Origin: a virus
Strand: one strand, 5' to 3'
IMG/VR virus record: IMGVR_UViG_3300045988_067725
Span: 1-11,684 of that record
Length of the DNA: 11,684 nucleotides
Below the pieces are notes generated by a model. It did not search any database, was not told the origin of the DNA, and saw nothing but the letters and a program-made list of their open reading frames with translations. The translations under genes and the position numbers were made by a program. Position 1 is the stretch's first letter. Every line of letters starts with the position of its first letter. Shown one piece after another: positions 257 to 771 of this stretch.

Positions 257-321
257 TTTGCCGTGCCTGTTGGCTCAACGTTTGCCCGTGTTGTTAATTT
301 GTACAGGTTTCATACGTTGCC
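257..321 (+). repeat. Direct repeat copy A, inside the ITR (mirrored at 11364..11428)
   Basis: 257..321 aligns with 707..771. The first 40 bp are identical (tttgccgtgcctgttggctcaacgtttgcccgtgttgtta). There are then 4 mismatches (297, 298, 310, 313) before the sequences diverge. Confidence 0.85.
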
Positions 322-406
322 AACAGGTAACAGGGCGTGCCGTATGTGTGCTGTGTGGCTTCAATACGTGCGCCCTGTTGCGTTGTTTTGCTGTTGGTGT
401 ACATTG

Positions 407-714
407 TTACGGGTTCGTGCCTGTTGGCTCAATTACAACGCCCTGTTGCAGTCGGTTTAATATGTCGCTGTATTCTGCTAAATACATACCGTCTGTTTGT
501 AGGTTGTCAATATCAACAAACGTGTTGCGCCCCGTAAAATTGCCGATGCGGTCACGCTTGTTTGCGTTGTACGGTTGTGCCTGTCTGCTCTCATTGTAAC
601 GTATCAGTATGTAAGGCGTTAAACCCTGCAACGTGGTTGTGTCGTTTGTCAGTTCGCCAAATTTGTCGCTATATGTACGATATAACATAGGTGAAACCGC
701 TTTACATTTGCCGT
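407..714 (-). pseudogene. Duplicated 3' fragment of the tail gene (last 102 codons); 93-aa ORF 688->407 with an in-frame ATG
   Basis: The ORF 407..688(-) translates to MLYRTYSDKFGELTNDTTT...VVIEPTGTNP. This is identical to residues 443..535 of the 535-aa product of 9671..11278. Nucleotide identity continues up to 714. Confidence 0.8.
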
Positions 715-771
715 GCCTGTTGGCTCAACGTTTGCCCGTGTTGTTATGTTGTACAGGTTGCAGACGTTGCC
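707..771 (+). repeat. Direct repeat copy B, straddling the inner ITR boundary
   Basis: See copy A. Its first 8 bp (707..714, tttgccgt) are also the last 8 bp of the ITR, equivalent to acggcaaa at 10971..10978 inside the tail gene. Confidence 0.85.

Follow-up and report, generated by a model that had tools for sequence, protein, structure and literature searches.

Copying of the right genome end onto the left at an 8-nt match probably expanded the inverted terminal repeat of a phi29-like gut phage

Genome organization and affiliation

We analysed a stretch of 11,684 nt, the IMG/VR record IMGVR_UViG_3300045988_067725, which we refer to as the window. It is the near-complete linear genome of an 11.7-kb phi29-like, protein-primed podophage of the human gut, and its close relatives, denoted here by L numbers, come from human-gut metagenome assemblies. 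All long ORFs lie on the + strand, to which all coordinates refer unless stated otherwise. The protein-primed family-B DNA polymerase (PolB) is encoded at 2657-4864 (PF03175, E 1.5e-17; phrog_1907, E 5.9e-75). Pfam and PHROG profile matches identified a gp16-type packaging ATPase (4876-6108), a gp10-type connector (6209-7420) and a phi29-type major capsid protein (7970-9157), and the respective families PF05894, PF05352 and PF25622 all exceed their own cut-offs. The region 6900-7420, with a GC content of up to 0.62 and an AT skew of up to 0.67, codes for the C-terminal tail of the connector, which is acidic, of low complexity and rich in D, E, G, T and N. The last gene (9671-11278) is intact and encodes a presumed tail or receptor-binding protein of 535 aa. 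Its product has no Pfam match and no family assignment; homologues were found only in related phages, and the gene occupies the tail/receptor-binding position in the genome. We refer to it as the tail gene. A 205-aa ORF directly upstream of PolB (2017-2634) is a positional candidate for the terminal protein; no Pfam or PHROG family matched it above the cut-off. No pRNA family of Rfam matched at E values up to 10, a search that diverged pRNAs could escape, and at the window termini the same search gave no other credible RNA. No endolysin or holin was recognised in the window. Minus-strand genes at the right end are absent, unlike in the phages astrithr and Phanie.

The nearest isolated phages are those of the Astrithrvirus group (astrithr, DU_PP_III and Phanie), whose PolB is ~45% identical at the protein level. 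A megablast of the whole window against phage records gave no match. It likewise showed no DNA similarity to Astrithrvirus astrithr, so the window lies outside the genus Astrithrvirus by nucleotide-level similarity. Scans of IMG/VR for PolB relatives, for the 40-mer of the repeated element described below and for its 24-mer core found nothing. At 837-870 we observed a promoter motif of the Bacteroidota type, TTTG-N21-TAACTTTG, with the first gene 48 nt downstream; TAACTTTG also occurs upstream of the early genes of both L024 and L033. TAnnTTTG is enriched, with 27 occurrences in the window against an expectation of 13.9. The motif and the enrichment suggest that the host is a member of the Bacteroidota, in contrast to the isolated relatives, whose hosts are enterobacterial. 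We also considered TATAAT at 780-790 as the -10 box of an early promoter, with its -35 box inside the second copy of the element, and dropped it: a sigma-70 scan calls no promoter there, and the Bacteroidota-type motif downstream is the better fit.

Structure of the inverted terminal repeat

The left arm of the inverted terminal repeat (ITR) spans 1-714 and is the reverse complement of the right arm (10971-11684) over 714 nt at 100% identity. In the right arm, the final 308 nt of the tail gene are followed by a non-coding terminus of 406 nt. The stop codon of the tail gene at 11278 corresponds to left coordinate 407, from where a truncated antisense copy of the 3' end of the gene runs inward as a 93-aa ORF on the - strand (407-688). 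This ORF is called as a separate gene on the left-end contigs L005-L007 and L013-L021, and would be a by-product of the expansion proposed below.

A 65-nt element occurs twice in direct orientation. Copy A (257-321, mirror 11364-11428) lies inside the ITR, and copy B (707-771) has only its first 8 nt inside the present ITR. Of the 65 positions, 61 agree between the two copies: the leading 40 nt show no difference, and mismatches occur at repeat positions 41, 42, 54 and 57 (window 297/747, 298/748, 310/760 and 313/763). The homology has abrupt edges, with GTGTGATGC vs CGCTTTACA upstream and AACAGG vs CGTGTG downstream. In 11.7 kb, chance falls far short of explaining a repeat of this length at 94% identity. 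The 8-mer TTTGCCGT at 707-714 has two identities at once: as the last 8 nt of the ITR it complements tail-gene positions 10971-10978, and it forms the first 8 nt of B. It also opens copy A (257-264). Self-comparison thereby bore out what the initial annotation had described, namely an ITR ending at 714 on an 8-bp match between the tail-gene complement and the start of B, and a direct repeat of ~65 bp (257/707) with 40 of 40 identical positions followed by four mismatches.

Between the two copies lies segment X (322-706), an inverted copy of DNA that would formerly have been unique to the right end. Inward of B the left-unique sequence begins with CGTGTGCTTATAATATAAT (772-790), and from CTTATAATATAAT inward it is retained in all junction variants that we encountered; at its start L031 reads TTTATAAT, and in L029 its first 6 nt (CGTGTG) are swapped for right-arm sequence. 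The core of the element occurs three times per arm region (262-278, 416-432 and 712-728). The middle one is a partial copy, CGTGCCTGTTGGCTCAA, which falls within the final codons of the tail gene; L030, L031, L029 and L001 all conserve it. This 17-nt copy was ruled out as the source of the junction, as the inverted copy runs on to 706.

By our own estimate the probability of an 8-nt microhomology at an arbitrary junction is roughly 1e-4. Donor and acceptor have 87 8-mers in common where 22.5 are expected, and therefore TTTGCCGT is one of many usable sites. A junction that falls on a microhomology remains a signature of microhomology-guided joining, though such matches are easy to find. The AT skew is -0.18 to -0.39 over 1-750 and positive almost everywhere else. 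It is negative there because the region is a left ITR arm copied from the right end. The G/T richness of 240-714, which had been taken as a sign of right-end origin, is real, yet it would follow from any ITR arm and is not independent evidence for an expansion.

The window is probably short of four terminal nucleotides (GGGT) at each end. The 3' end of L031 (reverse complement) has GGGT directly before ATGCACC (ATGCACCTCGC), and the isolates start with GGGTTATCC in Phanie and GGGATATCC in DU_PP_III. A terminus of GGG would fit initiation of protein-primed replication by sliding back. Palindromes centred on CACGTG (TTCCACGTGGAA, TTTCACGTGAAA) are located at 42-59 and 70-87 (mirror 11598-11643) and at 1259-1276, that is, two per ITR arm and one between early genes. 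There is one per arm in L030 and none in L031, where they are missing because of a ~165-nt deletion corresponding to window 41-205. The palindromes may be protein-binding sites, and much of the terminal region seems dispensable. Short CGTGCC/CGTGTC repeats (cgtgccgtgccgtgtcgtgccgtaacgtgcc) lie at 201-236, just outside the element, and their copy number differs in L030 and L031.

The junction in independent assemblies

The junction X–TTTGCCGT–B was recovered with the same sequence in at least nine independent metagenome assemblies from different samples. It is carried as in the window by L002/L004 (ERZ28598112, window from 695), L005 (ERZ1309428, window 325-2669), L006 (ERZ1314852, window 196-1542, with A, X and B all on one contig), L009 (ERZ1309331, window from 699), L016 (ERZ1740008, window 187-879), L018 (ERZ1309369, window 152-725), L020 (ERZ1309419, window 187-747) and L022 (ERZ28597499, window from 699), and with a secondary deletion by L007. 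Right arms that are the same as in the window were found in L002, L022 and L023. We saw no relative with the 714-bp ITR that lacks the A/B repeat.

Some features of these contigs need a comment. An apparent 12-nt indel in the PolB gene of L022 is a scaffold gap of Ns. The last 133 nt of L005/L032 past window 2669 are unrelated to the window; the switch occurs 13 nt into the PolB gene at low coverage, the foreign tail encodes a signal-peptide-like start (MKKIMLSGIAMAVATLSC...), and this end is probably a chimeric assembly with bacterial DNA. Copy B of L016 carries the first two A-type sites and is thus an A/B hybrid (run ERR1297816), and in L017, from the same run, the end of X stands before an A-type element. 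The two could be reciprocal products of an exchange between A and B, one by conversion and one by tandem duplication of the 450-bp unit, or else paths that the assembly took through the 40-nt repeat. As they stem from one low-coverage run, we left the hybrid and the join in L017 out of the evidence.

Two derivatives of the window-type junction have lost parts of B. L007 has the junction of the window, but a deletion between TTGCCCGTGT repeats has removed 35 nt of B. In L008 the boundary lies at about 719, where the tail-gene copy is 5 nt longer (TTTGCCGT followed by TGTAT) and is joined to the 34th nucleotide of B, so that the first 33 nt of B are gone; the flanks of this junction nearly match (TaTTGTT vs TgTTGTT). 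It looks like a second small switch anchored by an already long ITR. In L001 and L029 copy B is absent at that position. Judged by these sequences, B is dispensable and in the process of being eroded, as expected of a relic.

Inner boundaries in sister lineages

Any two of the window, L001, L029 and L031 share 97.1-97.7% identity. In window coordinates their inner ITR boundaries are located at about 328 in L031, 348 in L029, 384 in L001 and 714 in the window, besides the one at about 719 in L008. The boundary has moved repeatedly within this species, not once. The segment 322-714 is always present at the right end; it is missing from the left arm of L031 and partial in the left arms of L029 and L001.

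L031 (OLFV01003129.1, 97.1% identical to the window) was found by a pattern scan of metagenome contigs. Its left arm comprises GGGT and window 1-40, CGTGCC repeats, a B-type element and CCCGTGTG, and then reads TTTATAATATAATCAC...; the sequence TTTATAATATAAT... comes directly after CCCGTGTG and there is no tail-gene copy on the left. Up to the boundary the arm measures 151 nt, and the ~165-nt deletion mentioned above is flanked by CGTG. On the right-arm side the contig starts with GTTGCAGACGTTGCCCGTGTG followed by CCAACAGGTAAC...; the first 21 nt are the inner end of the left arm, after which the sequence continues as window 322 onwards. Both arms carry a B-type element. L031 is thus unexpanded and of the kind that had been proposed as a check, a relative whose ITR stops near the position equivalent to 321 and whose left arm continues straight into B. 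It also supports the ancestral ITR of about 300-320 bp that the initial annotation had postulated, except that the boundary lies ~7 nt beyond the element, after CCCGTGTG, and not at 321.

For the other two sisters we read the boundaries from 30-nt overlaps at the ends of Logan contigs and not from full arms. L029 (97.4% identical to the window) has the same 30-mer at both contig ends, corresponding to window 319-348, and at the boundary its left arm passes from ...GCCGTATGTG to CTTATAAT with a 4-nt TGTG overlap. L001 (97.7% identical) has a shared 30-mer corresponding to window 355-384, and its left arm passes from ...GCGGT to CGGTTGCCCGTGTGCTTATAAT. Both boundaries lie outside the tail gene. 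The four lineages form a star, and we took the polarity from outgroups and from L030 and L031, not from a rooted tree.

L030 is 82.8% identical to the window overall and reaches the terminus, ending at window position 2. Its right arm has the B-type sites and CCGTGTGC before CAACAGG. The right arms of both L030 and L031 combine the B-type sites (ATG, GGTTGC) with CCGTGTG(C), a sequence that is left-unique in the window. Because these right arms carry the B-type variant, B is the older, ancestral form and A the changed copy; the A-type changes in the right arm of the window amount to four substitutions and the loss of CCGTGTGC. The B-type sites, seen in each arm of L031 and in the right one of L030, also agree with the suggestion that B is the original left copy left behind. 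Over left coordinates 401-600, the last ~200 nt of the tail gene, L030 and the window are 99-100% identical, vs only about 65% further into the gene, and the adjacent non-coding terminus of L030 resembles the window far more than the genes of L030 do. This pattern indicates a recombination breakpoint near left coordinate 620 and the exchange of a terminal module between lineages.

Among more distant relatives the ITR stays outside the genes. In L025 (PolB 68% identical) the boundary lies at the stop codon of the tail gene (0 nt past) and in L033 (tail protein 50% identical) 27 nt past it, both again read from 30-nt overlaps at Logan contig ends. The ITRs of the isolated Astrithrvirus relatives are perfect, measure 171 and 219 bp and contain no coding sequence; for astrithr only 18 bp of ITR are seen, and its deposited ends may be incomplete. 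The left contig of L024 (PolB 78% identical) starts in element-like sequence, which is suggestive only.

Position of the boundaries relative to predicted hairpins

Folding energies were computed from DNA parameters. Hairpin HP1 (GCCTGTTGGC ... GCCAACAGGT) spans 265-328 (mirror 11357-11420) with -13.8 kcal/mol (z -2.9), and copy A makes up its 5' and middle part. Hairpin HP2 spans 327-381 (mirror 11304-11358) with -15.5 kcal/mol (z -4.7). Copy B folds only to -10.6 kcal/mol, without the outer stem of HP1. The two hairpins begin about 25 nt past the stop codon of the tail gene and may form a terminator or RNA-stability structure of the late operon, or single-strand DNA structures.

The short boundaries at about 328, 348 and 384 correspond to the base of HP2, a position near its predicted apex and a position 3 nt past its far base, and the perfect part of the A/B repeat stops at the apex of HP1. 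With four data points the coincidence of boundaries and predicted hairpins is no more than suggestive. We consider it conceivable, though on balance doubtful, that the inner ITR boundary is a recurrent template-switch hot spot of the protein-primed polymerase. If so, the length polymorphism of the ITR would record, naturally and in vivo, a strand switching that is guided by DNA structure, and an ITR grown into the tail gene would link the C-terminus of the tail protein with the exchanged terminal module.

Alternative explanations

The reading that we favour is that the right end was copied in inverted orientation onto the left end at the 8-nt match and that the old left repeat stayed behind as a scar; we hold it to be very probable. 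Three features by which ITR expansion is recognised were found: an inverted copy of end-unique DNA, an unexpanded relative (L031), and a short homology together with the relic B. An opposite history would make the 714-bp form ancestral in the species cluster and derive the short forms by deletions in the left arm, between TGTG repeats in L029, near GTTGC in L001 and by recombination between A and B in L031. On paper a single left-arm deletion suffices to obtain each short form from the window type, the deletion in L007 shows that they occur here, and the star-like phylogeny gives no root. For L029 and L001 taken by themselves, deletions from a long-ITR ancestor explain the data equally well. 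A deletion in the left arm, however, is unable to create the B-type element and the CCGTGTG(C) in the right arms of L031 and L030, and the outgroups L025 and L033 as well as the isolates hold ITRs outside the genes. Moreover, X is inverted coding DNA, so that the 714-bp form itself needs an expansion from a state resembling terminal region plus B, and only the timing would change. We therefore regard such a contraction as unlikely.

We also asked whether the structure could be an inverted chimera from amplification with phi29 polymerase or a mis-join in an assembly graph. The junction looks exactly like the inverted chimeras with microhomology known from multiple displacement amplification (PMC1855051), several of the supporting contigs have a coverage of ~1-2x according to their names, and L017 contains a probable loop artefact through the 40-nt repeat. 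Against this, the junction is identical to the base in at least nine assemblies from several assemblers (SPAdes NODE, MEGAHIT k127/k141 and scaffold sets), an overlap of 8 nt is unable to mis-join k-mers of 21 or more, and derived variants of the junction exist in L007 and L008, which together make an artefact extremely improbable. A last reading is that selection maintains both A and B as functional sites (promoter, protein-binding site or terminator) and that the position of the boundary is incidental. The three occurrences of the core per arm region, the stable hairpin formed by A and its flank, and the conservation of the terminal non-coding region, far better than that of the genes between L030 and the window, would fit such a role. 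B itself, however, is partly deleted in L007 and L008 and missing at its position in L001 and L029, which also speaks against B being a required promoter, as had been raised as a counter-reading; the sigma-70-like promoter scan calls none in it, and it is unable to form the outer stem of the hairpin. A repeat that starts exactly at the crossover is predicted only if B is the scar of the copying. Selection on both copies is accordingly a very unlikely account of the boundary.

Proposed course of the expansion

The copying of the right end onto the left would have started from an immediate ancestor with an ITR of about 300-330 bp, made up of the terminal region and the 65-nt element and ending just before CTTATAATATAAT... 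The element would have been part of a hairpin downstream of the tail gene in this ancestor. A nascent strand primed at the right end would have copied 714 nt inward and thereby overrun the old ITR boundary by about 390 nt, entering the tail gene by 308 nt. The 3' end of this strand, TTTGCCGT, could then have re-paired with the complementary 8-mer near the 3' end of the single-stranded minus strand, the left-end template, and have been extended to full length. Alternatively, breakage and joining at the same 8-mer would give an identical product. The new left arm would consist of the terminal region, the right-arm element (A), the inverted right-end copy (X) and the old left-arm element (B), with an ITR of 714 bp and a genome enlarged by 450 bp. 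The crossover would have taken place somewhere within the 8 nt at 707-714.

Several features of the window are explained by this order of events. The direct repeat opens right at the crossover, since it is that portion of the old ITR which lay further inward, and B would be what remains of the inner end of the previous left-arm ITR. An intact gene on the right and a truncated antisense copy on the left give the direction of the transfer as right to left and a left arm once without X; the claim that the right end was copied to the left at the microhomology is supported. Since the right end would have served only as donor, no gene was damaged. The route was most likely a template switch guided by the microhomology, or else illegitimate recombination, by which the left end received a copy of the right arm; the two cannot be separated from the sequence because they yield the same product. 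We infer a replicative switch by the phage polymerase rather than host-mediated recombination. Among the relatives we found no genome with exactly the terminal region and B on the left and an A-type right arm, as would be expected of the immediate ancestor.

Comparison with known systems

The nearest comparison within the phages is the Astrithrvirus group (Salmonella phage astrithr, DU_PP_III of Pectobacterium and Phanie of Acinetobacter), which shares with the window the genome size, the gene order, a protein-primed PolB, a gp16-type ATPase, a connector, a phi29-type capsid protein, ITRs and GGG(T/A)TA termini. The group differs in its PolB, which is only ~45% identical, in the absence of DNA similarity, in its non-coding ITRs of 171-219 bp and in its lysis genes and minus-strand right-end genes, which are missing in the window. 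For phi29-like phages a limited literature search returned no report of such an ITR expansion. ITR length change in protein-primed linear genomes is mostly inferred from comparisons of distant genomes. Here the evidence is more direct and consists of a base-resolved junction, a surviving relic, an unexpanded sister and alternative boundaries, all within about 3% divergence. The case cautions against treating ITR length as a stable character in taxonomy, and it shows that long ITRs which extend into genes of metagenomic phage genomes can be real.

In vitro, the strand-displacing phi29 DNA polymerase forms mostly inverted chimeras, primed at complementarities of 2-21 nt (PMC1855051). A displaced 3' end re-primes on another single strand with the same geometry as at 707-714; those chimeras are in-vitro artefacts, whereas the junction in the window belongs to a heritable genome found in many samples. 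Streptomyces linear chromosomes undergo chromosomal arm replacement (PMC5869714; Fischer et al. 1998 cited there). They too are linear replicons capped by terminal proteins, in which one arm is copied over the other, the length of the terminal inverted repeat changes and the result is polymorphic within a species. The Streptomyces events differ in that they usually involve homologous recombination of repeats of kilobase size, follow a double-strand break and are driven by host repair, whereas in the window the homology amounts to only 8 nt and the polymerase was plausibly that of the phage itself.

The ITR expansion of poxviruses, for example in 2022 mpox genomes, likewise copies one genome end onto the other (PMC10230479). 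As in the window, unique sequence of one end appears inverted at the other, the ITR lengthens into coding sequence, DNA of the recipient end is sometimes lost and very close strains are polymorphic. Poxviruses, in contrast, have hairpin-closed ends and another mode of replication, and their events are of kilobase size and involve whole genes, compared to a 450-bp event in a protein-primed 11.7-kb phage with a junction resolved to an 8-nt microhomology. End-to-end copying at short homology is thus already known from poxviruses and Streptomyces, and the expansion of the ITR into coding sequence described here is a new instance of this known process, caught in a natural population.
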